From sequence record OP557969.1: a stretch of 64,000 nt of DNA; one strand, written 5' to 3'. A program made the position numbers and the translations under genes. The DNA comes from Escherichia phage ph0011. The notes beneath the pieces were generated by a model that was not told the DNA's origin, searched no databases, and saw only the letters and a list, made by a program, of their open reading frames with translations. Shown here one piece after another: positions 32,822 through 54,100 of this stretch. Within the stretch, counting starts at the first letter, position 1. Every line of letters begins with the position of its first letter.

Positions 32822-32853
32822 TAAAAAACCAGACTTATTTGAATAAGCCCGGT
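32822..32853 (-). terminator. terminator-like hairpin (minus strand)
   Basis: Imperfect hairpin followed by T-run on the minus strand, just downstream of stop at 32863. Confidence 0.35.
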
Positions 32854-32862
32854 TTAATTTTA

Positions 32863-33759
32863 TTACTTACCAGAGATAACAATCTTCCCACTGAATGCAA
32901 CATCAGAAGTAAAGATCACGTCACCAGTATTGCTAATTTGTGTATCAGTTATTACCAATTCAAATGGTGAGGATGCAACACTACCAGGTGTTTTATTTGC
33001 ATAAATCGAAACATACAAATTGTCTGGTGATTGTTTGTGTTCAGATGCTGAAATCGTGATGATGAACACATCGTTATTAGAAATCCAATCTGCTTGGTTT
33101 ACTAATTTACTATAAGGTACTGTCATTGTTGTTGCTCCTATAATGTTTACTTTAACATTTGCATAATCTGTAATTTTACCAATTACATCTATTGTGATAT
33201 CACCAGTGCCGCTTACTACTACAGAGGTTTGAAATACGGAATCCAATGTTATACTACCATGAGGATCACCCTGTAGTTGTACCATGATATCAGGACCACG
33301 CCCATGTACAGATGCTGGAAGGGTGTATGTGTAATGGTCGGTAGTATCTGAAACTAATGTAAATGAAGATACTGGTATAGTTTCAGTTGTTACATATGGA
33401 CTATCAGTTTCATGTGAACTACCTTTGAATGATTTCCAAATACCAAGATCTTTAATATAAATTTGAAGAACATTAGTTTCATCAACTAAAAAATACAAAT
33501 CACCATCTAACCCAATAGTTTCATCCGGTGCACTGGTTCCACGCAAAATACCAGAACTCCCACCACTATGTGCGTTTAGATATCCTAACGTAACCAGGTG
33601 TGTGTCAGCGGTCGGTTCACCTGCTGAAATTGGAAGAAGTTTTGTTCCTGAGTAGTTTTGTATTTGCACAACACTACCATTTGTGGTAATCTGTGCACCA
33701 TTCTTCCCAAGAATGAAGGACTTCTTCATGGTTCCTTCTAAATTAGAAAAAACTGCCAT
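32863..33759 (-). CDS. short tailspike/fibre protein with shared N-terminal anchor domain
   Basis: 298 aa; N-terminus MAVFSNLEGTMKKSFILGKNGAQI nearly identical to that of the upstream 713-aa tailspike; GGAG RBS. Confidence 0.65.
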   Translation of the reverse strand: MAVFSNLEGTMKKSFILGKNGAQITTNGSVVQIQNYSGTKLLPISAGEPTADTHLVTLGYLNAHSGGSSGILRGTSAPDETIGLDGDLYFLVDETNVLQIYIKDLGIWKSFKGSSHETDSPYVTTETIPVSSFTLVSDTTDHYTYTLPASVHGRGPDIMVQLQGDPHGSITLDSVFQTSVVVSGTGDITIDVIGKITDYANVKVNIIGATTMTVPYSKLVNQADWISNNDVFIITISASEHKQSPDNLYVSIYANKTPGSVASSPFELVITDTQISNTGDVIFTSDVAFSGKIVISGK

Positions 33760-33775
33760 TTTAATTTAATCTCCT

Positions 33776-35917
33776 TTATGGTAGGGTTATGTACGTTACT
33801 GGTTGGGCGGCTTTTAATGATGCACCAGCGGCAGTTGCTGTTATGATGGGATCTGCAATATCAATTCTATATACGTTATTAACAACATATACTGCACGAG
33901 TTATATACGTTTTCAAATCATCACCATTTTCTCCAGCACCAGATATGATGATCTCAGTTCCCGCCGCTTTTGCATATTGGTTATCACCCCATGACACACC
34001 CAATGCTTCTATGTACGTTTGTCCTACTACCGTTTGTCTAATTGTGTCATATTTTCCAAAAAATGAACCACCCACTGTTACAATATATTTTCCACCTGAT
34101 TTTTTATGTATAATCGTTCCTTCTGGGAAGTATCTTCCACCAGGGAAAGTATCATATGGAATATAATATTGTTCAACTACAGGTATTAGAACTGGGCCAC
34201 GATGACCAGTACCGTCAATAGCAGTTGTTACTTTAAAATTATTAGATGATTGGTCGATTCTATCTACGTACATTTTAGAAAAACTATATTTTGAAACATT
34301 ACAATCATCTTGAACAACACAGTTAGTCCAATTAGTATAAGTATATTTAGAGCGAGTATACATTCCCCCACCCTCACCTTCAGTGGAAAGGTGTTGTCCT
34401 ATTACATCTAATTCTTTTGTTCTGATATCACTAAACTTAGATGAAGATGGTAGACCACGCCAAAGAATTTTAGAACAAGTGATATTACTTAATTCTGTAC
34501 TATTCAGCCAATTATCAGAACCAGAAGTATAAACGAATACGGAAGACTCTGGTATATAGAGATTGGAAATTTTAAAGTTTCTAGGTGGTCCAGCAAATCG
34601 ACCAGCAGTTACCCCCCAGTTAATAGATACCATACGGTTTGTGATTGTAGGATCATTAAGTAAATGTCCGGTTAAACCATCAATTACAAACTCTTTTGAG
34701 CCATAAGTTATCACACCAGCAGTTGTTAATCCAGTACCAACTGAAATTAGAGATGATGGATACACTTCGTTATCAAGTATTTTAAAGTCCATTCCCAATT
34801 CAACATGGATACATTGTCTAACATTATAAATTCTATTGTTCTTAATAACAAAGTTTCTAACGTATTGGGTATCAGGTGCATCCAGACCATAAGGACCAGA
34901 ACCCGCAACACCAATACCGATACCCCAGTTTGAAAGTGGGATTGGTGCATCTGAACCATCAACGTTTTCAATGATATTACCTTCGATTACAAAACCATCA
35001 GGATAATGTGAGTTAATAACGTTTAATTCTATTGCATCACCATATATATCATGAATATGGTTGTAAGAATAACGCCCCACTTTCATTTTCTCACCAGTTC
35101 CTTGCTGAAGAACGCCATATTTACATTTGGTCATTTCATTAAAGCAAAAATCTATTGTTCCTGGTTGGGTCATACCTTGCATCAAAAACGCGGCAGTACT
35201 GGTAATGTTTACAAATTTATTAAAATAAAATTTACCATCCCCACCAAAGAATTTCAAATAACATCCAGTAAGTGTGGTGAATTGAATTTGTGAATTAATA
35301 ACGGATATCATAGTACCACCATTACCAGTAATAGTGCCACCAAACCAAGTTACATCTTCCAAATATACTGCTTTTTTGATACGATAATTACCACCTGCTT
35401 GAATTTGTATTTTATTTTCTTTGGCATAAGTTGCACACAAATTTACAGCTTCAGTGTCATCGGTTTCCCCATCTCCTTTCGCACCAAATTCTTCTGGTGT
35501 TATATAGAACTGTGCTTGTTGAACTGTGCCACCAGTAATAAGGCCAATGAAATCACCACCATTTTTACTTGATAGTACTTTTTTATTAATGTATAGTGAT
35601 TTAATCCATGTGCCATTTGTTTTTACGAAAATATCAACAATACCATCTTCATCAATTTGAAAATAAGTGTTATTGTTTTTTCCAATATCACCAGACGGTG
35701 GTTGAACGCCAAATAAGGCATTTGGATTATCTTCAAGGTATCTAACATTAACTGCTGAATCTTGGTCTGATGGTGTTCCTATCTTTAGTGGTAGAAACTT
35801 TTCACCGAGATAATCTTTTATCGATACGGAATCATTGACGAAATTTATCGAAGCACCATTTTTACCCAATATCATTTTTGGTTTCATGGTTCCTTCAAAA
35901 TTAGAAAATACTGCCAT
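33776..35917 (-). CDS. tailspike protein (beta-helix, depolymerase candidate) with shared N-terminal anchor domain
   Basis: 713 aa; N-terminus MAVFSNFEGTMKPKMILGKNGASI; central region with motifs like NNRIYNVRQCIHVE and repetitive G/N-rich turns suggestive of a right-handed beta-helix; GGGGG RBS. Confidence 0.65.
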   Translation of the reverse strand: MAVFSNFEGTMKPKMILGKNGASINFVNDSVSIKDYLGEKFLPLKIGTPSDQDSAVNVRYLEDNPNALFGVQPPSGDIGKNNNTYFQIDEDGIVDIFVKTNGTWIKSLYINKKVLSSKNGGDFIGLITGGTVQQAQFYITPEEFGAKGDGETDDTEAVNLCATYAKENKIQIQAGGNYRIKKAVYLEDVTWFGGTITGNGGTMISVINSQIQFTTLTGCYLKFFGGDGKFYFNKFVNITSTAAFLMQGMTQPGTIDFCFNEMTKCKYGVLQQGTGEKMKVGRYSYNHIHDIYGDAIELNVINSHYPDGFVIEGNIIENVDGSDAPIPLSNWGIGIGVAGSGPYGLDAPDTQYVRNFVIKNNRIYNVRQCIHVELGMDFKILDNEVYPSSLISVGTGLTTAGVITYGSKEFVIDGLTGHLLNDPTITNRMVSINWGVTAGRFAGPPRNFKISNLYIPESSVFVYTSGSDNWLNSTELSNITCSKILWRGLPSSSKFSDIRTKELDVIGQHLSTEGEGGGMYTRSKYTYTNWTNCVVQDDCNVSKYSFSKMYVDRIDQSSNNFKVTTAIDGTGHRGPVLIPVVEQYYIPYDTFPGGRYFPEGTIIHKKSGGKYIVTVGGSFFGKYDTIRQTVVGQTYIEALGVSWGDNQYAKAAGTEIIISGAGENGDDLKTYITRAVYVVNNVYRIDIADPIITATAAGASLKAAQPVTYITLP

Positions 35918-35929
35918 TGTGACACCCCC

Positions 35930-37057
35930 TTAAATATTATCTTGAATAGGTTGGACCGGAGCTTGCCACGAAAGAGTACAAATAATTTCCATTTTACCAT
36001 AAGGACTGTTATTAACTGAATCATTGAATACACATGAAATAATTTCATCTACATCTGAAACTTCATGATTTGTTTCATTGACGATAAAACGCATCTGGTT
36101 ATTAATATCAAAGTAGGTTGTTGGTGCAATTACGGTTCCACCAATATTCTCGTTTGCTTCACCACCAAATCGAACAAACATATCAGTTACTGGTTGTGAA
36201 TAAGGTTGTAAAACATTTACATCTATATTAGAAACTACATATCCAGAAGGACAAGTCCCAATAACTAATAGAGCATTAGTCCATGATCTATCAATAACGT
36301 TTCTAATTGTTACAGTATCTTTGCCTGGTGCACCCGGTTCACCTTGCTTACCTTGAATACCTTGTGGACCTTCTTTACCACGGAATAAAATACCACTACT
36401 CCATTCTTTTGATGGTGGGGTGGTAGTTGTTACTTCATCCACATAATAAAGCTTACCATCAGTGTTGTTATAGAAACAATAATCAATTGGGAGGTTTTCA
36501 ATACTTGGAAATTGATCACCACTATCGTCAATATGAAAACGACCACGTGGACCTTGCTCACCACGGAAAGGAATACCATCACTCCATGTAGCTGTTACTT
36601 TTTGATAAAAATATAGTTTACCATCTTGTGTATTGTAAAATGTATAGTTATCAAAAAGACCAGAACTTGGAAAAGTAGTTCCTGCACTATCGATATGAAA
36701 AGGCTTACCAGCTTCACCAGTATCACCTTTACCAAATTCAACACTAGTCCAAGTACTGGTTTCTTCTTGTGCATCATTTGATTTAAAATACAGAGTACTT
36801 GTGTTATTTGCCAAACTAAGATAGCACCAGCCAAGCGGTTCACCAACTTTAAATTTATCAGATGGAACTTCAAAACCAATCTCATTAGGATAAAAGTTTT
36901 TACCGTTCTGACCATTTTGTCCCACAACAAGACCGAGATCTTGAATTGTATTATCTGTATATGTTACAATTAAATGACCAGCATTATTAATAACTAGACT
37001 TTTGATGCCTGAGTTATTACATGAACCACTGGACCCATTGTTAAATGTAATTGTCAT
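35930..37057 (-). CDS. collagen-like repeat tail fibre protein
   Basis: 375 aa; G-x-y triplets (GPQGIQGKQGEPGAPGKD; RGEQGPRGR); AGGGAA RBS; heads the fibre operon. Confidence 0.7.
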   Translation of the reverse strand: MTITFNNGSSGSCNNSGIKSLVINNAGHLIVTYTDNTIQDLGLVVGQNGQNGKNFYPNEIGFEVPSDKFKVGEPLGWCYLSLANNTSTLYFKSNDAQEETSTWTSVEFGKGDTGEAGKPFHIDSAGTTFPSSGLFDNYTFYNTQDGKLYFYQKVTATWSDGIPFRGEQGPRGRFHIDDSGDQFPSIENLPIDYCFYNNTDGKLYYVDEVTTTTPPSKEWSSGILFRGKEGPQGIQGKQGEPGAPGKDTVTIRNVIDRSWTNALLVIGTCPSGYVVSNIDVNVLQPYSQPVTDMFVRFGGEANENIGGTVIAPTTYFDINNQMRFIVNETNHEVSDVDEIISCVFNDSVNNSPYGKMEIICTLSWQAPVQPIQDNI

Positions 37058-37166
37058 AATATTTCCCTTTTATGAGTGAATGTCATATACCAATATTTAT
37101 CAGTACGAAATACATTTCGTCACCATTAATAAATAAATGAAAGTTCACTACTAAAAGGGCTTAACA

Positions 37167-39897: not shown

Positions 39898-41241
39898 TTA
39901 TTTGTCAGTGAAAGTTATTTTCCAATATCCTTGACGATAAACTGGCATAATACTTTTATGCCATTTAAATTTACCATTGTATCTATAATAACCATTATCT
40001 TCGTTGTTATAAATGTAATTACGCACAGTTGATGGGTCAATTAATTCAGCACCGTCGTTGGTAATTTTAAACAAATAATTCGAAGGAATTTCAGTTTCTT
40101 TGTAAATGATGTTATGCATACTGTTATTTACGTAATATTGTTCAGGTATTGCATCAAAAAGAACTGAGCTTTTTTGGACAAATCCATGAATAGTATAATC
40201 AACTGTATAGTTGCTACTATCAAGCTGAACGATAATTTTATTTGCATCTTCATCTTCACCATATGAAGAAATATAGCCTTTGAGTGGATTATCTTCTTCG
40301 ATTGATTGTTGAAATTTAATACCGACTTTTTTATCATCAAAATTGGGTTCCAAATATTTAAGATATTTTTCCCATGAGTATATACCACCATTAGGGGAAA
40401 CATCGGACAATGACTGACTAACTAAAGTTAGTTGATATGTATCTGGTAAATTATATAAAGAATTAGTTATCTCTTCAACTTTAATACATAAGTTTTTTGG
40501 TGTAAAGACATCAGTGATAATATCCGAATAGTCAGACATTTCAATGTCAAATTCATCACGAGCACCTTTTATATTAGTAGTGATCTGTTGAATCAATTTT
40601 GGTTTTTCAACAATAGCTGGTAAAGAAAACCATATTGTTGTTTCAAATGTCAATACCATAATGTCTAAATCTTGGTCAGTTCCTTGTGGAAATCCACGTG
40701 TAGAGAACTGACAATCAATCAACTCTACATCACTTAGTGATGTCCAATCCAACGGGTTTTCAGATAACTGAAGTTGAATACTCGGTGAAAATAAAGTTGA
40801 AATTTGCTCAAATAATTCCATCTTTGTTTGTATTTGAGTTACCCAGATATTCAAATCAAATGTAAATGTCCAAGGAACTGGGTTATGTCTTACGATTTTA
40901 TATTGTGAATCGAGTTCTTTTTTGTATTCATTAATGGCAGGTGATGTGTTTGTTCCCATAACTAATGTTTCATTCGCATTAGAACGTATACTTTTACGAT
41001 CCAGCTTTAGTTGATTAACACTGATTGTCATAATTGGTGCAGATGGAAGAACATTTTCACTATTACCATTGATAATTGCAGCAGCCATTCTTGATATATC
41101 CGCATAACGACATGGAACCTTTTTATATTTTGGGTTCCCATCAGCATCAACACCATTTTGTACTTGAAATTCACCAAAAACTCTGATAAGATGTTTCAGT
41201 ACTCTGCGAAATTGGCCGTCATAATAATAATCTATTTTCAT
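39898..41241 (-). CDS. tail completion / sheath stabiliser, T4 gp15-like (tentative)
   Basis: 447 aa; N-terminus YYYDGQFRRVLKHLIRVFGEFQV...VPCRYA resembles T4 gp15 N-terminus recalled from memory; start overlaps upstream stop (ATGA). Confidence 0.45.
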   Translation of the reverse strand: MKIDYYYDGQFRRVLKHLIRVFGEFQVQNGVDADGNPKYKKVPCRYADISRMAAAIINGNSENVLPSAPIMTISVNQLKLDRKSIRSNANETLVMGTNTSPAINEYKKELDSQYKIVRHNPVPWTFTFDLNIWVTQIQTKMELFEQISTLFSPSIQLQLSENPLDWTSLSDVELIDCQFSTRGFPQGTDQDLDIMVLTFETTIWFSLPAIVEKPKLIQQITTNIKGARDEFDIEMSDYSDIITDVFTPKNLCIKVEEITNSLYNLPDTYQLTLVSQSLSDVSPNGGIYSWEKYLKYLEPNFDDKKVGIKFQQSIEEDNPLKGYISSYGEDEDANKIIVQLDSSNYTVDYTIHGFVQKSSVLFDAIPEQYYVNNSMHNIIYKETEIPSNYLFKITNDGAELIDPSTVRNYIYNNEDNGYYRYNGKFKWHKSIMPVYRQGYWKITFTDK

Positions 41242-42731
41242 TCTGTGTCCTTATGTATACGATAAGCTGTATTTGGTTTAACTGCGTCATGTAATGGAAC
41301 TTTATTATCACTATTTACGAACTTAGTAAGTGCTAAATCTGCACCTTCCCACGGTTTTCTACCACCGTAATCAAAAATAACCCATGAATTCTTAGTTGCA
41401 TTGAATTCCCACAGTGTAACTGGTGTATAATCAGTACGGTAAAAGTAATCACCATCAACTGCATCAGTAGGGAACATGTTTCCTTCTGGAACTGTACCTC
41501 TTGCTGGTGGGATTTTAGGGCGATAATCCTGTTGTGCATCAATATTTCCATATACACAACTTGATGTGAATGGGTCATTGACGTAAGTTACTTTTGGTTC
41601 GCCCCATTTACCATCATTGTACTGAAAAATGTGTGGTTCTTTATAAAAAATACAAAAATCTTCAATATCTTTTGGTGGATTTTCACTGGTCGTGTATTCA
41701 ACATCACAATTTAACCATTTTTTAACACTTTTATCGTACTGGTATAGTGTATACCCAGTTACATCTACATCATTCTCTTTAAAGAAGAAATCACCATCCA
41801 TAGGTTTCTTAGGAAAAACGGTTCCACGCTTGACTTCCAGTGAAATCCATGTATCATTATCGTATTCTTTAAGTATTGGGTATGTTTTTTTCAAAAAATA
41901 CATACCACTTGCAGGTTCTTCGGGGAAATCATATCCATTAAGCATATACTTTGACAAATCAACAGTATCACGACGGTCATCATACAAATGCTCGTTGGTA
42001 TAATGAATATAAGGCACTTCATCATCAGCTTGCATAATGATACGATTCATAATATCCATTTCATTACTATAGTTACTGTTATCAGATGTACCATCATCAG
42101 TGTTACCATTACCATTATTTGGATCATTTGGGTTATCAGGGTAATTGTTGTTTCCTAGTAAGTCGGAGTACTCAGGAGAGTCAGTCAATGGCTTTACTCG
42201 AAGTTTATAAATGTGATGTTGCCAAGTAACAGAGTAACCTTCTGCTGTACGAAACGCATCTTGGACCACATAGAAGCGATTCAGACCAGAATCTTTACCA
42301 AGAACATCATAATCACGTAAATTTGGTAGTTCAATTACATCACCAGGCATGATTTTTCTACCCAATCGTTGCATCATGGTATTGTAGTGGATTGTAATGT
42401 CCATCGTGTTGAAATTAAAGAACAAACCTGGAATTTTCAAGTCAGGTGTTGCTTCTTGAACTTGATAGACACAACTTAGTGTGATTGCTTCAAGATTATA
42501 GTTTCTATTTGGGGTGTCTCCAAAAATTAAATCACCAATACTTGACACAACCGATCCAGAAGATGTATAATCACCGCCATATGATAAGTCTTTGTTATCT
42601 GCAACTTGTTTTGGGCCGACATAAGCGTAAAGCCACATGTCAACACCACCAATGTTGTATTGTTCAGCAATGGCAGAGTCAATGAACTTGTAATCATTGG
42701 TTCTACCTTTTTTCCACATTCTATATGTCAT
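41238..42731 (-). CDS. neck protein, T4 gp14-like (tentative)
   Basis: ATG at 42731 preceded by GGAGA (track ORF starts at TTG 42743); weak resemblance to gp14 in the region MPGDVIELPNL...YKLRVKP. Confidence 0.4.
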   Translation of the reverse strand: MTYRMWKKGRTNDYKFIDSAIAEQYNIGGVDMWLYAYVGPKQVADNKDLSYGGDYTSSGSVVSSIGDLIFGDTPNRNYNLEAITLSCVYQVQEATPDLKIPGLFFNFNTMDITIHYNTMMQRLGRKIMPGDVIELPNLRDYDVLGKDSGLNRFYVVQDAFRTAEGYSVTWQHHIYKLRVKPLTDSPEYSDLLGNNNYPDNPNDPNNGNGNTDDGTSDNSNYSNEMDIMNRIIMQADDEVPYIHYTNEHLYDDRRDTVDLSKYMLNGYDFPEEPASGMYFLKKTYPILKEYDNDTWISLEVKRGTVFPKKPMDGDFFFKENDVDVTGYTLYQYDKSVKKWLNCDVEYTTSENPPKDIEDFCIFYKEPHIFQYNDGKWGEPKVTYVNDPFTSSCVYGNIDAQQDYRPKIPPARGTVPEGNMFPTDAVDGDYFYRTDYTPVTLWEFNATKNSWVIFDYGGRKPWEGADLALTKFVNSDNKVPLHDAVKPNTAYRIHKDTE

Positions 42732-42773
42732 ATTTGTCTCCAAAATAATTCGGGTATATCTTTATTTACCATG

Positions 42774-42839: not shown

Positions 42840-45128
42840 ATGAATCTTACTCAATTGTTCAAAAAAAGCGACGAACTAGCAACATCCCTAGGTCATACTT
42901 TCTTGACTATTGACCATGTGAGTGCTACAGTACTGACTATTGATAGTATCAAGGGCGTGTTCGAAGAAATGAACATCGATGCTGACAAATTGCATAGTCG
43001 ACTGATGAACTATCTTAAAAATACAACGGTTCCAAGTGCACCAAAAAGTACACTCGATGAAGATGCTAATCGCACTTCACTTCTGGTGAACCGTGTTGTA
43101 CATGAGCTTTCGAAAAAATCAGTCATTGAACAACTAAAAAGTGATGATTTTTCGATTGATGCATATTTTGTTCTATTTGAATGTTTATCATTCCCAAACA
43201 CTGCACTTGAAGCTGCTTTGAAAGAAGAAGGCGTTAGCTGTACCGAAGCTGCTCGTGCACTACAGAAACACGTTGAGGCACTGGAAAAGGGTATCAACCT
43301 TCAAAGTATCAATGACGAACCTACTGGAGATAAAAAAGTGGCTCAACCACAGCAATCATCTAAACAAAAAGGTTTAGCAGACTATACAACAAACCTAACG
43401 GCACTTGCAAAAGAAGGCAAACTAGACCCAATGATTGGTCGCCAAAAAGAGCTATCTGCATTGATTGAGACTCTTGCTCGCAAAACCAAAAAGAATGCCA
43501 TCCTGACTGGTGAAGCTGGTGTTGGTAAAACACAAATCATCGACGGTCTTGCACAAGCAATTGCTGATGGTAATGTACCAGAGCACTTAAAAGATGTTGA
43601 AATTCTTTCCCTAAATGTTGGTGCGTTGACTGCTGGGACTAAGTATCGTGGTGAATTTGAGGAACGTATCGATAATTTACTAAAAGAACTAAAGAAACGT
43701 GAAAACACAATTGTTTTCATTGATGAAATCCATATTATGGTCGGAGCAGGTTCTGCAAGCAACGGTTCAATGGACATGAGCAATATGCTTAAACCAGCAC
43801 TATCACGTGGTGAGATTCGTGTAATTGGTGCAACAACATACGAAGAATATCGTAAAAACATCGAGAAAGATAGTGCATTGACTCGTCGTTTTATGAAAAT
43901 TGATGTTGTTGAACCGTCAATCGATGAAACTCGTGAAATTGTGAACGGTCTTAAATCAACTTATGAAAAATTCCATAACGTTGAGTTTACAAAAGATGCA
44001 ATGGATGCAGTAATTTCTCTCAGTGAGAAGTTCTTGAAAAATAAACACTTCCCAGATAAAGCAATTGACCTAATGGATGCTGCTGCTGCGAAAGTGCGTT
44101 CACGTGATAATAATAGTAAACTAATTACAGAGAATTTGATTCAAGAAGTTGTTGCTGGTATTGCTAACTTGGATATCAACGTGGTTGCATGTACAGAAAG
44201 TGAACGTATGCGTAATCTACCAGATGCACTACGTTCACGTGTTTACGGACAAGAAGAAGCGATTCAAAAATTGGTTGATAATGTAATGGTTGCTCGTGCT
44301 GGTCTACGTGATAAGTCGAGTGTTCAGGGTGCTTTTATGTTTGTTGGTCCGTCAGGTACTGGTAAAACAGAAATTACAAAAGCATTAGCTGAAGCAACGG
44401 GTTCAGAGCTTGTTCGTTTTGATATGTCTGAGTTTTCTCAAGAACATACTGTTTCAAAACTAATTGGTTCCCCTCCAGGTTATGTTGGTCACGATTCTGG
44501 TAATGGTTTGCTATTGGATAAGATTGAGCAGTTTCCTAATGCCATTCTACTACTCGATGAAATCGAGAAAGCAGATCGTAAAGTACTACTAACCTTCCTA
44601 CAGGTTCTGGACGAAGGACGTTTGACTGGCTCACAAGGTAAAACTGTTTACTTCAATAACGTAACTGTTATTATGACAACCAACCTTGGTGCGGCTGATT
44701 CAACAAAGCGTAGTATTGGGATGAGTGGTAGTGAAAGTGCACAAGACAAGGCAATTAAAGCATTCTTACCACCAGAATTCATTAACCGTATTGACAGTAT
44801 TGTTACGTTTAATGAACTAAGTAGTGAAGCAATTGACAGTATCATTGATAAATTCATGGGAAGTTTGAATGAACAAGTTAAACATCGCAACGTAAAAGTT
44901 TCACTAACGAAAGCTGCACGTGGATGGCTTGCAAAAAATGGTGTTCAGGTAGGTATGGGTGCACGACCAATGAAACGTACAATTGAACAAAACATTCGCG
45001 TACCACTAGCGAAGGAAATGTTGTGTGGTTCACTGGTAAATGGTGGTAACATTACATTTGATGTTATCAATGACAAACTTGGTATTAAACCAAAACGTAC
45101 TAAAGCAGTTGAAAAAACACTAGCTTAA
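42840..45128 (+). CDS. clpA: ClpA-like AAA+ unfoldase (Clp_N domain, D1 and D2 ATPase modules)
   Basis: 762 aa; GGAGAA RBS; D1 Walker A GEAGVGKT and Walker B FIDEIH; D2 Walker A GPSGTGKTE and Walker B LLLDEIEKA; ClpP-docking-type loop SIGM; collinear with E. coli ClpA. Confidence 0.85.
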   Translation: MNLTQLFKKSDELATSLGHTFLTIDHVSATVLTIDSIKGVFEEMNIDADKLHSRLMNYLKNTTVPSAPKSTLDEDANRTSLLVNRVVHELSKKSVIEQLKSDDFSIDAYFVLFECLSFPNTALEAALKEEGVSCTEAARALQKHVEALEKGINLQSINDEPTGDKKVAQPQQSSKQKGLADYTTNLTALAKEGKLDPMIGRQKELSALIETLARKTKKNAILTGEAGVGKTQIIDGLAQAIADGNVPEHLKDVEILSLNVGALTAGTKYRGEFEERIDNLLKELKKRENTIVFIDEIHIMVGAGSASNGSMDMSNMLKPALSRGEIRVIGATTYEEYRKNIEKDSALTRRFMKIDVVEPSIDETREIVNGLKSTYEKFHNVEFTKDAMDAVISLSEKFLKNKHFPDKAIDLMDAAAAKVRSRDNNSKLITENLIQEVVAGIANLDINVVACTESERMRNLPDALRSRVYGQEEAIQKLVDNVMVARAGLRDKSSVQGAFMFVGPSGTGKTEITKALAEATGSELVRFDMSEFSQEHTVSKLIGSPPGYVGHDSGNGLLLDKIEQFPNAILLLDEIEKADRKVLLTFLQVLDEGRLTGSQGKTVYFNNVTVIMTTNLGAADSTKRSIGMSGSESAQDKAIKAFLPPEFINRIDSIVTFNELSSEAIDSIIDKFMGSLNEQVKHRNVKVSLTKAARGWLAKNGVQVGMGARPMKRTIEQNIRVPLAKEMLCGSLVNGGNITFDVINDKLGIKPKRTKAVEKTLA

Positions 45129-45163: not shown

Positions 45164-48100
45164 TTACTTAACTATTAATATTTTTTGAATATCATTACCA
45201 CGAACTCGTAGACTGTTAGTATACACAGAAAGGTCTATTGTATAACTATTTTGAGTATAACGTTTAAACTTATCATAACCGCCCAAATTAATTCCGTTGA
45301 AAGAATATGTAGTATCATGTTTGAAATCGTGTTCTGCACTGTACATTACTCCACGGAGTAAGTTGTTTGTATTTCTAACTTCAACTTTTTCATATCCAAT
45401 CGATATAATGTCACTCTTGTTAGCAGCGGAGCCTGATAACACATTATTTCTAACATTATAATGGCTTACGGAAAGAGGTTGTGCTACATAAGTTGTGTTT
45501 TCTTCACTAATGGTTGTTATGTTAGTGATGGTAGCGTCAGCCACATCAATATACATACTATCAACCATTGGATATTCATACACCCACACACCTTCATTAT
45601 TTTTTGTCGGTTTGATATCTTTCGCATCATATTCAATCACGTTAATTTCTAAACAATCCGGCATTTTAGTTCTTACTAATTCACTAAGAACACCTTCCCC
45701 TGTAATTGGTAGATTATAACCGTTGTCTATAGTAATACCATCATCATTAAATATTTCATTTGATACAACCCAAACATCAACATCATCAGGTGTTACTCCG
45801 TCATTATACTTACCACCATTTAAAGTAGTATCATAAAAAACGTCATAATTAATCACATCAATGGTGTAATTTCTGTTTTGCTCATATAATTTAATATCAC
45901 CCTTGGTAAATTCTGGGTCAGCAAATGTTCTAACACGAACAATGTTCAATGCAAGATGTTGTACTGGCTGATTCAGTTGTCCAAGTGTGATGTTATCATA
46001 TCGAAGAACATTACCAGAACTATCAACCAACTCAATCGTTTCTTTTCCTGTAGTTCTTACAGTGAATAGAATAGGAGTTGTATTATGTTTGATATTAGAC
46101 ACACGTAATATGGTTTCCCATGTACGATTTTGATATCGAATAAAATCTTCACCATCCGGTGTGAAAATCATCACCTTATCACCATCAGATAAGTCACTGT
46201 CAACGATTTCAGCCTCAGTTAAGCTATTAATAGAACGTACACGATAGAAATATTTTTCTTCAAACGGTGATGCCGTTTTATTAATATCATGTTCAATCTT
46301 AGCATATGAAGGAATACTAACAATTGCTTCTGTATGTTTATATGGGTTGATAATTGCCATACCCTCGGTTTTATATCTGCTATTATTACGCAATTGCACT
46401 AGTGATTCAGTATCAAATCCATAACCATCAACAGTGAATCTAATATGCCCAACTGCACGACTAGCTGGATTTATTTCAGATATATCGATAATATAAGGAT
46501 CAACTTCATCATCTTTAACTTCCCATTTGATAGCTGAAGTTTGTGATTCTAATGCAAGGTTGTCAAATGCATTCATATCATTGAAGAACTTAGCTTCAGC
46601 AATACTATCAATTATATATTGATAATCCGAATACATAGGGTTATTTTGATCTTGTGGTAAATCATCTAGATTTATTTCAGCAAGTTTAATCATTTCACCA
46701 TTAGTAATGAAATAATCTTCCATGAAATCATCAATACTTTTATCATCTGGTATACTTTGGTATTCACCATTGATATTTAAGTAGACATGTTTTCTTGGCA
46801 TCATAGTAATAGCATAGATATCAATAGGTGTTTTTGAAAGAATTTCTTCTGCTTTTTCATACATATCAGCAGAGTCTTTATCAAACAACCCTCTCATGGC
46901 TGCCAGTACATGGACCGCATCGGAATAGAAACGTGTATCACCACCAATTTCATCATAACGATAAACATATACACCGTATTCAACTTCAAGTTTCACTTTA
47001 ATATCATGTTCAGATGCATCTGGATATTTTTCTGTAATAAAAGAAATATATTTTTCATATAATTCTTTACTTATTTCAAAATATCCATAGTTATAATCAT
47101 TACTTGAAGAAAAACCTAATGGTAGTCTAGTACTTGGGTTATCATTATAAACCAAACCACTAAATCCACAGCCAACCTCATCATGAATCTTATCATCACT
47201 GATATCTTTATAAAGTTTCAAACGGTTTGCTAATGTATTGTACTGAACATAGTGTCGAAGGTCAGTAAACATTTCATTATGCGTTGATTCGTTATAAATG
47301 CGTTCAAGTGTAGCAGTAAATTCATCAGTTGCTTCTAAATCATCAGCATGTTCTTTATACCACTGGTTTACACCATTTGCAGTTCCTAGTGTTACATCTA
47401 ATTCTGGATAGTACGTTTGTAATAGATACGCATTAACCAAGTCAAATGATTGTTCATTATACACAGGGTAAGAATATATATAACGTTGTAATTCATAGGT
47501 ATTAACAGAATCTTTTTCATTTGATTGATACTTATTATTAACACTAATCAACTCATTAATGTTTGCCAAATCTTTATTCGGTTTACATTGAATATTATCA
47601 TAATGCATAATAATATCAATTTCTTGAAATCTTCTATTTGGTGCAATAAAATCACTAGGCAGAGAACCTACTTTCTCCCATTTTTTAGTGGTTTCATTAT
47701 ATTGAGCGTACTCATAATCCCAAATATCCTTTTCAGTTTTAACCCACGAACCATCAACAAAAATATACCCATTAGGATCTAAATCATTACAAAGACCTTT
47801 GATTAAGTCATCATCAGACGTTTTTTGTTCTATCTGTGAACGGATTTTTGTACGATATGGTTTCACCTCTTCAAAGTACTCAACAATTTGGTTAATCAAA
47901 TTATCATTTGAATAGTTTTGTACCAAAGATTGTTCCAAACCAACAATATAGATATAGGATGTTTTAAATACCCAATCAACAACACCCTGTTCTACGTGTA
48001 CATATTTGACCATATCAAAAACAATTTCACTTTGGTGTAAATCGAAAGAATTTTTTAGCAAAGCAAGTGCTTTTCTAATATTAATTTCACGATTACTAAG

Positions 48101-51100
48101 TGAACCGTCCTCATTATGAACATTATAATCTACATAAAACAAATCGTTAAGCTCAATAGTACTACGTTGTCGCCCAATAGCTTTCCAATAAATTGAATCA
48201 CGTGATTGAGATTTGATATATAAAGTCCAAATGTTTTCACTATCTGTGACTCTAATTATATCACCAACTTGATAGTTTTTAGCATTTGCTTCTTCTAAAC
48301 TTATCTCTTGGATGTAAGCAGTTTTGCTATCATACCCAACATCATACCAATCTGCATAAGACCAGTATTGAGTCATATCTAATGATGTTCCGAGTGATTC
48401 AACATAATCCGATTGCTTAATCATTTTATGTTGTCCTTCACCTTTATTTTCTAAAGTTATAGTAACAACACTACCTGCATTAGCTGGACTATTCATTAAC
48501 TGAATATATCCGTTTTCATCGAAGTGAATAAAATAAACAGCACTAGTTGATAATGGAGTCGGTAGATAACCGCTAGAACTTAAAATAACAGCGTCATTTT
48601 CTTTAAATTTATCCTTTTCAACTGCAATTACAAGTTCATTATTATAAGTTAATACACGGAACGAAACCTCATTAGGGTTAACTTCTGTAGTTTTAACATT
48701 AAACACATCTTCCATAACAACACTATTAGTAGTTATGTTTTGTGATCTATAATAATTATTTGCACTTTCTACAAAGTTTCTACGTGCCTCTATTATATTC
48801 TGGAACCAAGTTTTATTAGAGCCTAAACCAGTGTCAACTTCTGGATATAATAAATCTACAACCTTACCTGACTTCGTAGTTTCTTGACCAATTAGAGAGT
48901 TCCACATAGAGTCCCAAATTAGTGGGTTAAAGTTGTAACTTTCACCCTCTTTGCAAAGTTGATATTGGTCATGTTTAACAACTTCTGTATTGTCCATATA
49001 GTAAGAAATAGTCAAAACACTAGTATCATCATTAACTTCAAACTGCATATTACTAAGAATAAAAGAGTTTTCATTAATTGGTGCGAACCAAGGAATGTTC
49101 AACTGTGATGGATCTTTAATAATACGTGCAATGTCAGTACATGATTTTGTTCTGGTATGAATAGGTGGTACATAAATTGTATCACGTACCCAGAAATAGT
49201 ATTTTGTTACATAACTGTCAGTGGAGCTATCATATTCCAAAAATGTACTATAATTATCTTCAAGTGCTGTTCCACTTGGAAGATACATATTATTATTTTT
49301 GTTTTTCTTAGCAACATCTTTACAGTACTTATCCCAGTTATATGGTTCTACTGGTGAACAAACCCATTCCAACACATCAATAGTACTATGTGGCAACAAA
49401 CGACCCCAGTTGTAACGTTTATATTCATTGGTTGCGTCAATATCAACATTTCCATCTGCATCATAAATGGCACGAGTATAATCCAAATAAAAAGCGGTGC
49501 TAGTGTTCCACCATACTTGACCAACTTTTTCAGCACCCCACGCCTGAACCAATTCGCCATTGCTATTATATTGAGCAGGGTCGATTGGTGAAGTATATGT
49601 TACGTTTTGCATTGCTGCACCAGGAATAACACCATTAATTGGGTCATAAACATTTAGATATAATGCAGTAATGTTTGTACGTTCATCATATGTAGTTGGA
49701 CGTTCAAACAAAGTACTTTGTGGTGCTTTAAAACTATATTTTTTATCAATATATGCTTGACGCTCTTCAGTACTCACAAAACGCGAAACATAACGATACA
49801 AACGAGGGCGTGTATCTGGGTCAGTAAATTCGATATTAATTGAAGTATCAAATGGAACCACCATAACTTTGGAATCATCCCCAGCAGTATAATATTGACT
49901 TTCTACTGTTAAAGTATCTGGCATAAAGTTAGTTTCGTCCACAAAATAATAGTAATCACCATCTTCAAGAGGGATATCATCAGATAGAGTTACTTTACAG
50001 AATTTCTCAGCGTAAACATCTGTGGTTTCGATTGGTGTAATAGAAACCATTTTAACATTAGTGTCAATTAATTCAAAAATGTTCCATAACCCATTTCCAT
50101 CTTTGAACATCCATACTGATTCAGGATTTTCACCTTTACCATTGATATACAACATACGGTCATTGAATGCAGTACTGAAATCTTTCGTAGTATAAGATAC
50201 TTCATCTAATGTAACTGGACCAATATCAGGCAGTTGGATGTGTTCACTTCTACCACTACGCATTGGGAAAGAGAATTTACCATTTGGACGAGTAATCCAT
50301 TGTGGGTCTTTTCCTTGTTCACCAAAGAATACAATATTGTTTCCATTACCATTTGATGTTGCATTTTCATCAAAAGACATCATTTGTGGCTGCTGCTTAA
50401 ATTGGTCATTAATCAATTTAAATTGAAGGTTTTTCTTTCCATCGATGTTACCATATGTACCAACTTTAAACGCCCATTCTTGTAATGCTTTATATTCATC
50501 AGTATCATAGGATTTAGAAACACGAAGAACACGTTCTAAAACTTGGTTTGTACCTTTGTCATGAATAAATCCTTTATAGAAATCAACACGACTTACATCA
50601 CTACTAATCATACGTTGTAGATAATCACGAGATTGATAACCAATCAAATGGCTAGACAATTCTTGTAATTGTACATCGCTAACGGGATGTTCATTGTCAT
50701 AGTAATGTTGAAAATCTGTTACTAGAGTTTCAAATGATGGTATTGTACCAGATTCCAAAATAATAAAACCAGGTGCTTGTAATCTACCAGTCCATGAACC
50801 AGTAATGTACCCATACATTTTAATTAGTTCCTGGATAGAACCATAAGTTGGTTGATAGATATAATCACCAAAAATAGTCTTATCATCAAATATAACAGCA
50901 TGTTCATATGAACACAAACTTAAGCGGATTAATGCAATACGCTTATTAGAATCGGTTGTTCTAACAGTGAATATATTACCAATACGTGAAGTTTCGATTT
51001 CATATTGACGAATACCTTGGTTATTATCATCAAGCAATGACCACACACCACCATTATTTTGTGTAATAGACTGTACTGAACCAAAATCCGAACCAAACTT

Positions 51101-54100
51101 AGCATTTGCAGCACTTGGTGTACAAGAGATAAATTCGCCAGTTACCAGAGGACTCTGACTCCATATCACAAAATCTTTAGCAATAGTGTGCCAATCTTGC
51201 TGAATACCATCTTGATTAACATCTTCGAAAATCCAGCCATGTTCTTTAAGATACTCACCATATCCACAAATAAAAGTGTATACTTCTTGATAACTATTGA
51301 AAATAGTCCCATATTCAATAGAAGCCTCAGACTTCCATTCATTATAATGAACAATATTACGGTTTTCCAATTTAAGAGTTACTTTTCTTCCATTTTTTAC
51401 TGGAAGTTTATATTTAAATTTCGCACCAACCAAATCATATCCATCAATTTGATATGCACTACCATTCCATGTAATTTTGATGGCACTCATCTGTTCATCG
51501 CGAATGTTATTCGAACGCACCAGACCAATCGTTTGGTTTTCTTGTGAAATAAGACCAAATGATTTAGCGTTGAATGTTAATTGATCTGCTTTAGTAAAGC
51601 CACCAATTTTATGTCCCACATTTACGTAAGACGAACGTACAACATCTCCATATTTTGTAGTAATATTTTTATTTTGATACATCAAATAATCACTAACAAA
51701 CATTTGATATCCAATTGTTCTTGTGTTATCTTCACCATGAACAGTTGTGTTTTTATCAAAATTCACACGATTGCGGGTATCCCCGTACAGAAATTGTTCA
51801 CCAGTGGTGATAATTTCTTTCAAATTGTCATTACGGGTATCCCAATAATAGTTGGCAAATTGTGCAGGTTTAGCTTTATACAAAAGTAACATTTGGTCAT
51901 ATGCAAACAATGTGGTGTTCATATACGTAAATTCCATATCACCCATGTCGCCATACGCCCAAGGTTCTGCTCGGTGAACTAAAGATCCAGACACTAATCC
52001 TAAAACTTCAGGAGCAATATACTCAACCACACAAATATCTACACCGGATGATGTTTTATTTCCAGTTTTAGTAATTTTAAATGGTTGTACACCAAATCTT
52101 TTATATTTGTCATACTGACCACGGCGGTCGCCATATAAAATTGTCCCAGTACTACTATCGCCGATTGTATCATTTACATCCCAAAGTCCACTAGGAACCA
52201 AATCACCTTGTTCATCAGTTACAAGTGCCTCATATACATAAACTACATCACCATCACGTTCACCAACTTGGACAGCGGTTGGTTCATACTCTTGGTTCCA
52301 CCAAGTAGGACGTTGTGTAAACCCAAACATTTCCCATGGATGTGTAGCAGGGCGATATGTACCATATTGATCAGTATAGATTGCACGCCATGAACCACGA
52401 GCAGGAATTTCAGTACTTTTACCATCAACAACATAATAGGTTCCAGTATAGTTCCATGTTCTCCAGTTATTAGGATCATAATCATGTGTACTATTACTAA
52501 TACCATTAGATGCAGTGAAGTTAATATAACCACGTAATAGAAGTGTTTGTTTTTCTTCTGCACTATATTCAGTTTTTGTAAAATATGGTGTAGGGAAAAG
52601 ATCATCACTATTCAATACAGGGACATAATCAACATCTTTGAATTTATTGTCAATACTATTGAAAATTCTATTTTCAAGTTCATATACAACATCATCCATT
52701 TTATCAACACCATTGATAACACGGTATGCTTTAGAAATAATACCAGTATGGCTGATATTATAATAGCTAGGTTTACTACCAGCAGTTAGGAATGTTGCTT
52801 TCTCAGGAACGTATGCTTGTAGAATACCTAAAAACTGTGGAGTTGGTGGTATAAATGCACGAATAAGACCAGATGTACTACCCACATTGTCATAATAGAA
52901 TGGGAATGAACTATCACGACCCATATTAATAGTTGCCAAAATAGAATCAACGATGTTAGCTGCACTATTTTGTAAAAAGTTAGTTGGGTTTTCATTGTAC
53001 ATTCTAAGCATTTGTGTATTAAATTTATTAATGAATCTGAAATATTCAGATTGCATAAACATAGTTGCTTCAAATAAATCAATATCTTCATTTGCAGTAT
53101 GAGCCATCAATGGGAGCATAGAAGCTTCATTTTGAATAATTTTAGTTCCTACTCCATTATTCACTAATCCCTTAGCTAAACGTTCTTCATAATCGTTGAA
53201 GTCATCAGCATAACCACTAGTGATATTCTGTTGAATAATATCCTGAAAATGAAGAGTATAGTCTCCTTGATTAATATATATAATATTGGAGTTATATGGG
53301 TTATTTTGTAAGTTAATTGGAACTTCATATGCACCTAATTCTTTATCAGGTGTTACAGTACTGCTATAAGTTCTAATTTGAATAACAGAATCATCATCCA
53401 ATTCAACACTGTTATCGATTGTGATACTTTGCACTTGACCTTTTAATACATTCTTGGTATATTTGGAGATATTAACACCATCAACAACAACTTCAATAAT
53501 ATCAGAGTCATTGTCTAAAACTTTTTGTGCCAATTCAAAAGTATGGTCATATTTTAAAACCTGAATACCATCACCACTAATTTGATGCCAGTCCAAATAT
53601 GTTTCACGTTCAGCTTTATAGTACTGATATGTTTTATCAACTTCGATGACATATGCATACATACCCTCGACTGGTTCTTTAAACAGTTCCATATCATAAA
53701 CAGAACTAAAGACTCGATACATATCAGTACGTTTGACTTGAGGTGTCTGTTTTACAAATTGTTTAGAGAATTCTTTTGAACGCACCCAATCAGTTTGAAG
53801 ATTCATTTTATTATTTTCATCAATGATGTTATAATAATACAAACCACCGATTTCAACTTCAACACCAAGATGGTCATATGTATAACGTTGTGATTGTAAA
53901 AAGTTTTCATAAGTGTAATAGTTATAATCACCAAGTTCAATGTTATACCCATATACACTATCAGCCGCGTAGTTATAGTTGATTTTAAATCCAAATAATG
54001 GTGAACCTTTAAATGTACTGGATGGGTACGTGGTGCTGTTATCTAGTTTGATTCCATTACGATCATAAAGTTGGAATTGAGGAAAGACGTTAACACTTGG

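Follow-up and report, generated by a model that had tools for sequence, protein, structure and literature searches.

The stretch of DNA analysed here, hereafter the window, comprises 64,000 nucleotides of Escherichia phage ph0011 (sequence record OP557969.1), and our subject is the gene at 35930-37057, which a sequence-only reading had taken to be the first gene of a fibre operon, with collagen-like G-x-y repeats forming a short triple-helical stalk and possibly an adapter for tailspikes that share an anchor domain. This interval is exactly one open reading frame on the minus strand, encoding 375 amino acids plus a stop codon (computed mass 41.2 kDa, pI 4.5), and the repeats are indeed present, the peptide quoted in that reading (GPQGIQGKQGEPGAPGKD) being residues 230-247. 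From the composition, conservation and domain folds of the protein, the virion association of its homologues and the structure of its operon, each of which is demonstrated below, we conclude that it probably forms trimers and serves as a collagen-like virion fibre in the tail-fibre/baseplate module of a jumbo myophage of the Asteriusvirus (RaK2-like) type. The gene and the segments of its product are as follows.

35930..37057, minus strand: collagen-like fibre protein gene, homologue of 121Q gp574, phAPEC6 gp253, CBB_228 and RaK2 gp062 (phrog_13565)
36923..37057, minus strand: N-terminal beta domain, residues 1-45 (MTITFNNGSSGSCNNSGIKSLVINNAGHLIVTYTDNTIQDLGLVV), the best-conserved part and presumed virion-attachment end
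36896..36922, minus strand: (GXY)3 run 1, residues 46-54, GQNGQNGKN (exact count and alignment)
36728..36895, minus strand: beta module 1, residues 55-110, a diverged version of the repeated cassette
36701..36727, minus strand: (GXY)3 run 2, residues 111-119, GDTGEAGKP (exact count and alignment)
36563..36700, minus strand: WW-like beta module 2, residues 120-165 (FHIDSAGTTFPSSGLFDNYTFYNTQDGKLYFYQKVTATWSDGIPFR)
36536..36562, minus strand: (GXY)3 run 3, residues 166-174, GEQGPRGRF (exact count and alignment)
36380..36535, minus strand: WW-like beta module 3, residues 175-226
36317..36379, minus strand: (GXY)7 collagen-like run, residues 227-247 (GKEGPQGIQGKQGEPGAPGKD), the segment flagged by the earlier reading
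35933..36316, minus strand: C-terminal jelly-roll head, residues 248-375, presumed to drive trimerisation and nucleation

By exact count, the Gly-X-Y (GXY) repeats of the fibre protein comprise one run of 7 contiguous triplets, above the figure of about six that had been set as the lower limit for a collagen interpretation, and three runs of 3. Shuffling the protein 20,000 times with its composition preserved gave a longest run of 6 triplets in five cases and of 7 in none, and no further run of four or more triplets was found in any of the six frames of the window. In an alignment of 32 homologues the glycine columns of the four runs contain 72-100% Gly (13 of the 16 at 91% or above), the lowest values belonging to the 4th (78%) and 7th (72%) triplets of the long run, while the commonest residue at the X and Y positions mostly accounts for just 28-66%; retention of glycine with freedom at X and Y is the constraint expected for a collagen-type repeat. 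Across the relatives the long run varies between 5 and 7 triplets, and in some of them the loss of one residue divides it 3+3, an “interruption” typical of collagens. The most distant homologue (P0058, 31% identity) has 62 perfect triplets, recognised as Pfam Collagen, in place of the middle of the protein, and keeps both the N- and C-terminal domains and the gene neighbourhood. The only match in a PDB sequence search with the fibre protein was a collagen peptide, at E 0.87. The seven triplets, the conserved glycine period, the 62 triplets of P0058 and the jelly-roll domain adjoining the long run at its C-terminal end together argue for the short collagen triple-helix stalk proposed from the sequence alone, with a predicted extent of 21 residues or ~6 nm, in a segmented fibre where GXY runs alternate with WW-like beta modules.

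A monomer model computed with AlphaFold2 (AF2) from a 33-row alignment, with a mean predicted local distance difference test score (pLDDT) of 74, gives confident beta structure throughout, apart from residues 1-14 and the four GXY runs. Residues 46-226 form three tandem cassettes, each consisting of a (GXY)3 run, the motif F-x-I-D-x-x-G-x-x-(F/L)-P and a three-stranded unit of ~35 residues. The core of modules 2 and 3 (~35 residues) follows the pattern L-x3-[Y]-x4-T-x2-G-x-L-Y-Y-x-D-x(n)-W-x-x-P, with strands at 138-142, 147-152 and 157-158 modelled as a three-stranded meander. The W-x-x-P element occurs in module 2 of most homologues; the window protein has W-S-D-G-I-P.

A profile built from 28 copies of cassettes 2 and 3 found mainly WW-domain chains in the PDB (~48 of 58 matches, the best being SMURF2 at E 1.2e-5, with PRP40, TCERG1 and YAP1 also represented), aligned by hhalign to a set of 13 WW sequences with 94.2% probability (E 1e-7, 33 columns) and, in an exhaustive search of 1.84 billion representatives, matched a genuine ten-WW protein at E 5e-15. 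The modules thus share with the WW domain (PF00397) a three-stranded meander, an aromatic signature with residues ~20 apart and similarity at the profile level, and differ from it in a longer loop before the last strand and in their position between the collagen triplets of a presumably trimeric rod. We term them WW-like because, despite these profile matches, the Pfam WW family remains under threshold (3 of the 28 module copies match, best E 0.014) and a Tyr stands in place of the first signature Trp. The exhaustive search also placed the cassette in at least about 170 clusters at 50% identity, including fibre-like proteins with tail Collar or with BclA_C and Collagen domains, and two of the cassette proteins that were examined (a set including P0067, P0069, P0079 and P0122) carry no Pfam family at all. 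Searching a word index with the module profile gave no match at E <= 0.001.

The C-terminal 128 residues, directly after the (GXY)7 run, are predicted as a jelly-roll beta sandwich. Its best fold matches are trimeric phage cement or decoration proteins (Ralstonia GP4, 8h89_J; Helicobacter KHP40 gp16, 7dou_4; cyanophage Pam1, 7eel_H), and it also resembles TNF/C1q heads, although a Pfam scan of the fibre protein gave no C1q, TNF or BclA_C match at E <= 1. The cement proteins differ in being stand-alone capsid proteins of 124-155 amino acids with 8-14% identity and no fibre part, and in gene context, which for the fibre protein is that of tail fibres. Conservation is highest in the N-terminal 45 residues (mean pairwise identity 0.68, compared with 0.59 in the head), and a natural chimera (P0057; metagenome contig SRR30543657_465; locus L013, 7001-7813) joins residues 1-112 of the fibre (75% identical) to a DUF4376 C-terminus, on a contig that lacks the remainder of the fibre gene, both genes for the MAVFSN-anchored proteins described below and the long tail fibre gene, apparently as a ~10-kb deletion variant. 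An N-terminus that is both best conserved and kept in the chimera fits the usual polarity of fibres, with the N-terminus proximal and the C-terminus distal to the virion.

At the DNA level the region is 93.8% identical to Escherichia phage UE-S1 and ~87% to 121Q, PBECO4, phAPEC6 and other Asteriusvirus jumbo phages. The fibre protein aligns along its entire length with phrog_13565, a “tail protein” of RaK2-like jumbo phages (E 8e-217, residues 1-375 on profile positions 1-375), and homologues with 44-95% identity are present in 71 phage records; the hosts of the RaK2-like phages are Escherichia, Klebsiella (RaK2, K64-1), Salmonella, Cronobacter (GAP32), Pectobacterium (CBB), Erwinia, Yersinia, Serratia and Xanthomonas. 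In the records listed, which include 121Q, PBECO4, phAPEC6, RaK2 and K64-1, the annotation is just hypothetical, structural, tail or, in one record, tail fiber protein. Mass spectrometry has placed two of the homologues in virions as abundant components, namely phAPEC6 gp253 (40.99 kDa, 14 peptides, 65.6% coverage; PMC7247149) and CBB_228 (13 peptides, 44% coverage; PMC5259590). The RaK2 homologue, gp062, corresponds to ORF062w and is not treated in the paper on the RaK2 adsorption complex (PMC10253068). In 121Q gp574 (locus L002, 8962-10077) and its closest relatives, four residues fewer are found near the N-terminus (MTISFNGSCNN as against MTITFNNGSSGSCNN), and it is because of these missing residues that tblastn alignments of 121Q-type records begin at residue 18.

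Downstream of the fibre gene, on the same strand, lie two further genes and a terminator, and upstream a divergent intergenic region.

33776..35917, minus strand: second gene, a 713-aa beta-helix tailspike (phrog_6117, “colanic acid degradation”)
35606-35917, minus strand: MAVFSN anchor of the 713-aa tailspike, residues 1-104
32863..33759, minus strand: third gene, a 298-aa virion protein (phrog_10468), the ancestral partner, found in all relatives
33421-33759, minus strand: MAVFSN anchor of the 298-aa protein, residues 1-113
32826..32855, minus strand: terminator-like hairpin of 13 pairs with a T-run, closing the unit before the 1834-aa long-tail-fibre gene
37058..37166, no strand assigned: divergent intergenic region of 109 bp between the fibre gene and a 165-aa structural-protein gene, with a ribosome-binding site AAAGGGA 8 nt before the ATG

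The 375-, 713- and 298-aa genes are spaced by 12 and 16 bp and followed by the hairpin, so that the description of the fibre gene as first in its operon holds. No convincing promoter consensus was found in 37058..37166, where sigma-70-like sites are no commoner than in shuffled sequence, and the T4-type late promoter (TATAAATA) is absent upstream of the fibre gene, with a single match elsewhere in the window. The divergent upstream genes encode structural proteins of 165, 202 and 366 amino acids, and beyond the last of these lie a NUDIX gene and genes for a T4 gp15-like tail terminator (PF16724), a 501-aa virion protein, a ClpA-like ATPase and a 3333-aa virion protein. The neighbourhood of phrog_13565 is conserved, with the 165-, 202- and 366-aa genes divergent upstream and a MAVFSN gene and long fibre downstream. 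One metagenomic relative carries an extra 325-aa DUF723 gene (locus L020, 2945-3922), mobile in appearance, between the 165-aa and 202-aa genes. The 3333-aa open reading frame (45164-55165, minus strand), which adjoins the ClpA/ClpB-like ATPase gene (42840-45128), is the homologue of the ~382-kDa phAPEC6 gp245 and of RaK2 ORF070w.

The MAVFSN anchor (about 105-113 residues), named for the six residues with which the 713-aa and the 298-aa protein both start, was found in 71 phage records, the same number as the fibre homologues (71/71), and a MAVFSN gene lies directly downstream of the fibre gene in every record inspected, the same order being seen in 9 metagenomic loci. Neither a PDB profile search nor a Pfam scan matched the anchor to anything. 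No stretch in the whole set is better conserved than its first 22 residues (mean distance 0.18). Most genera have a single copy, in a protein of 281-300 amino acids, whereas in the Asteriusviruses the tailspike carries another, 40% identical to the first; the 713-aa tailspike is confined to the Asteriusviruses proper, with two anchors per genome, and all other genera and EJP2 have one anchor. The 713-aa tailspike looks like an insertion that re-uses a diverged copy of the anchor of the 298-aa protein. In RaK2 and K64-1 the MAVFSN protein has shrunk to an anchor-only stub of 115 amino acids (MAIFSNLEGTMKK...; RaK2 ORF061w; locus L001, 10129-10476), annotated as a virion structural protein, and the long fibre that follows the MAVFSN gene in other genera is absent there. 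The GenBank record of phAPEC6 (MK817115; locus L003, 7909-11116) has no coding sequence annotated for its counterparts of the 713-aa and 298-aa proteins (gp254/gp255), which may explain why these are missing from the published phAPEC6 virion proteome table.

Covariation of evolutionary rates was assessed by mirror-tree and partial Mantel tests, with the three divergent upstream genes as controls. In a set of 13 genomes, covariation with the anchor looked specific to the N-terminal 45 residues of the fibre (partial Mantel r 0.84). With 21 genomes (these 13 and 8 metagenomic loci) the correlation with the anchor was 0.55 for the N-terminal domain, 0.48-0.61 for module 3 and 0.45-0.50 for the head (range across these three 0.39-0.61), 0.14-0.35 for modules 1 and 2, and 0.34-0.52 for the 165-aa neighbour; the C-terminal part of the MAVFSN protein showed no covariation with the fibre (r -0.26 to 0.10).

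These results suggest the following working model. Three chains would associate through the C-terminal jelly-roll head, which would set the register, and the adjoining (GXY)7 run would then zip into a collagen-type triple helix of ~6 nm, as in C1q, BclA and the prophage EPcl proteins. The WW-like modules may form trimeric knobs, which the (GXY)3 runs, likewise triple-helical, would link into a beaded rod, perhaps 20-25 nm long, and the highly conserved N-terminal 45 residues would fix this rod to the virion. Translated from one transcript with both MAVFSN proteins, the fibre would most likely join them in a sub-complex at the baseplate periphery, beside the long tail fibre and possibly including the 165-aa neighbour, with contact either direct, as an adapter, or via a shared socket.

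Several results weigh against this model. The score of the window protein for Pfam Collagen (PF01391), 17.2 bits with E 0.0045, is below the gathering cut-off of 27.2, for which reason we call it collagen-like and not a member of the family; every GXY segment has a pLDDT below 50 in the AF2 monomer; and a three-copy AF2 construct (3 x residues 160-375 with 60-residue non-Gly linkers and 15-row concatenated alignments) was uninformative on the trimer (mean pLDDT 55.6, predicted template modelling score 0.40, GXY again below 50). A 21-residue helix without hydroxyproline would be of marginal stability by itself. RaK2 gp062 went undetected when virions were analysed by mass spectrometry, and the authors doubted that it had a structural role (PMC3622015). 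The apparent specificity of covariation between the fibre N-terminus and the anchor vanished when the 8 metagenomic loci were added, and a specific contact between the two was therefore dropped; the covariation that persists is compatible with a co-evolving sub-complex and equally with linkage of adjacent genes. The low Pfam score and the lack of predicted structure in the GXY runs, together with the 3+3 break of the long run in some homologues, would also suit flexible Gly-rich linkers in a non-trimeric protein without any triple helix. We regard this as highly improbable, given that a strict period of three is kept over 32 sequences with X and Y free, that lengths change by whole triplets or by single interruptions of the collagen type, and that one homologue has grown to 62 perfect triplets. 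A more specific proposal is that the fibre is the adapter on which both the 713-aa depolymerase tailspike and the 298-aa protein are mounted, docking through the near-invariant first ~22 residues of the anchor, so that a new tailspike could be gained by copying the anchor. Co-transcription in a three-gene unit closed by a terminator, the co-occurrence of the adjacent genes in all 71 records and the top conservation of those 22 residues, kept in the additional Asteriusvirus tailspike though the anchors are just 40% identical, are in line with such a role, as are the moderate covariation with the anchor and its absence for the rest of the MAVFSN protein, the natural deletion in which the distal fibre is lost along with both anchor genes and the long fibre, and the conservation of the fibre, head included, among phages whose hosts differ widely, more in keeping with a scaffold than with a receptor binder. 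On the other hand, Pfam and fold searches of the fibre protein revealed no T4 gp10-like, XD or other known branching domain, all core tail genes co-occur in the single lineage from which the 71 genomes come, the covariation is specific to no single fibre domain and extends to the 165-aa neighbour, and the 115-aa stub of RaK2 fits a baseplate plug as well as a fibre ligand. The adapter is hence a possibility that we entertain only tentatively, and of the sequence-only reading the stalk is probable and its role as adapter for the MAVFSN tailspikes possible, adjacency and covariation fitting equally well either linkage or two separate fibres docked at one baseplate site.

Other accounts of a trimeric fibre differ from the sub-complex favoured above in where the protein sits and what it binds. 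It could be an independent short fibre, making no contact with the MAVFSN proteins, whose jelly-roll head recognises a host surface glycan as a secondary receptor binder of the PRD1 P5 or T4 gp12 type; this we find doubtful, since an identity of 0.59 in the head across phages of E. coli, Klebsiella, Cronobacter, Erwinia, Yersinia and Xanthomonas is unusually high for a receptor-binding tip, and no lectin family was matched in Pfam. A fibritin-like collar or whisker fibre, assisting attachment or retraction of the long tail fibre and located near the neck instead of the baseplate, would agree with a gene position close to the T4 gp15-like tail terminator, at a distance of a few genes, and separated from the gp34-like long fibre downstream by the two MAVFSN genes, which loosely recalls the T4 gene order gp12-wac-gp13-gp14-gp15, and with the predicted thin trimeric rod with a C-terminal folding nucleus, as in fibritin. 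There is, however, no similarity to fibritin in sequence or fold, and RaK2 keeps the gene though its long fibres are encoded elsewhere and built differently (PMC10253068), which makes this very unlikely. Equally poor are the prospects of a protein that decorates (as a “hair”) or cements the capsid or sheath, comparable to the hairy appendages of phAPEC6 and CBB: the fold matches of the head to capsid cement proteins, the very high coverage by mass spectrometry and the trimeric hairs on phAPEC6 capsids (PMC7247149) are set against a gene located in a tail-fibre cluster, a family that extends to GAP32 and RaK2, where hairs are unreported, and a length of ~119 nm for the CBB hairs (PMC5259590), far beyond what 375 amino acids could span. 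On this length and on phyletic distribution, formation of the 119-nm CBB/phAPEC6 hairs by the fibre protein was rejected.

The design of a collagen stalk bearing a jelly-roll head is known from Bacillus anthracis BclA, C1q/cerebellin and the PRD1 spike P5, and in C1q-type proteins the C-terminal domains trimerise and nucleate the triple helix. The closest phage counterparts are EPclA and EPclB, prophage fibres of E. coli O157:H7, which likewise combine an N-terminal fibre domain, a Gly-X-Y stalk and a C-terminal globular trimerisation domain; the PfC domain of EPclA has been shown experimentally to nucleate refolding of the triple helix, and EPclB has two collagen domains parted by another repeat, analogous to the interleaved modules here (PMC3368898). 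The EPcl stalks are longer (~111 residues, compared with 21+9+9+9; PMC3368898), and their flanking PfN, PCoil, PfC and Pf2 domains were not detected in the fibre protein by Pfam, nor does it have a coiled coil. Among branched systems, CBA120 TSP4, G7C gp66 and RaK2 gp528 provide the model of a shared N-terminal module on side-by-side receptor-binding proteins, to which an enzyme is added by module copying (PMC10253068). In that system branching proceeds via the T4 gp10-like and XD domains of the primary tailspike, and none was detected in the 375-aa protein or the MAVFSN anchor. The small adapter of SP6/K1-5 is another anchor and adapter system for branched tailspikes. The paper on the hyperbranched fibres of phiKp24 was considered as a parallel and dropped, this phage being unrelated.

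A collagen-like stalk with a trimerising head is thus already familiar in phage fibres, and the family is already catalogued as a tail protein, so that our finding adds annotation more than discovery. The domain map nevertheless tells structural biologists which density to seek beside the tailspike and the long fibre, and RaK2 and K64-1, which share this poorly annotated gene, are Klebsiella phages of relevance to therapy. The WW-like modules in many unannotated phage fibres and a portable anchor could, if confirmed, matter more. The MAVFSN anchor looks like such a portable module, with the added depolymerase riding on a pre-existing attachment site, and if confirmed this would be relevant to the engineering of host range. 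As to the modules, we found no description in the searchable literature of WW-like units in phage fibres or of a wide spread there. It is conceivable, though on balance unlikely, that “(Gly-X-Y)2-3 + WW-like module” is an undescribed and widespread brick of phage fibres, lacking a Pfam family in most of its clusters, a true homologue of the WW domain and, in this phage, the docking partner of the MAVFSN anchor. If so, the Asteriusviruses could have gained a colanic-acid depolymerase by duplicating an anchor of ~105 residues, by a mode of branching unlike the T4 gp10-like/XD system.

Elsewhere in the window, weak copies of the motif G-x-x-P ... GD-x-Y ... L-Y ... W occur twice in the 501-aa virion protein (41238-42743) and also in both MAVFSN anchors (GDLYFLVDETNVLQIYIKDLGIWK; residues 70-110 of the 298-aa protein), and the WW-like unit may be a general brick of ph0011 tail proteins.

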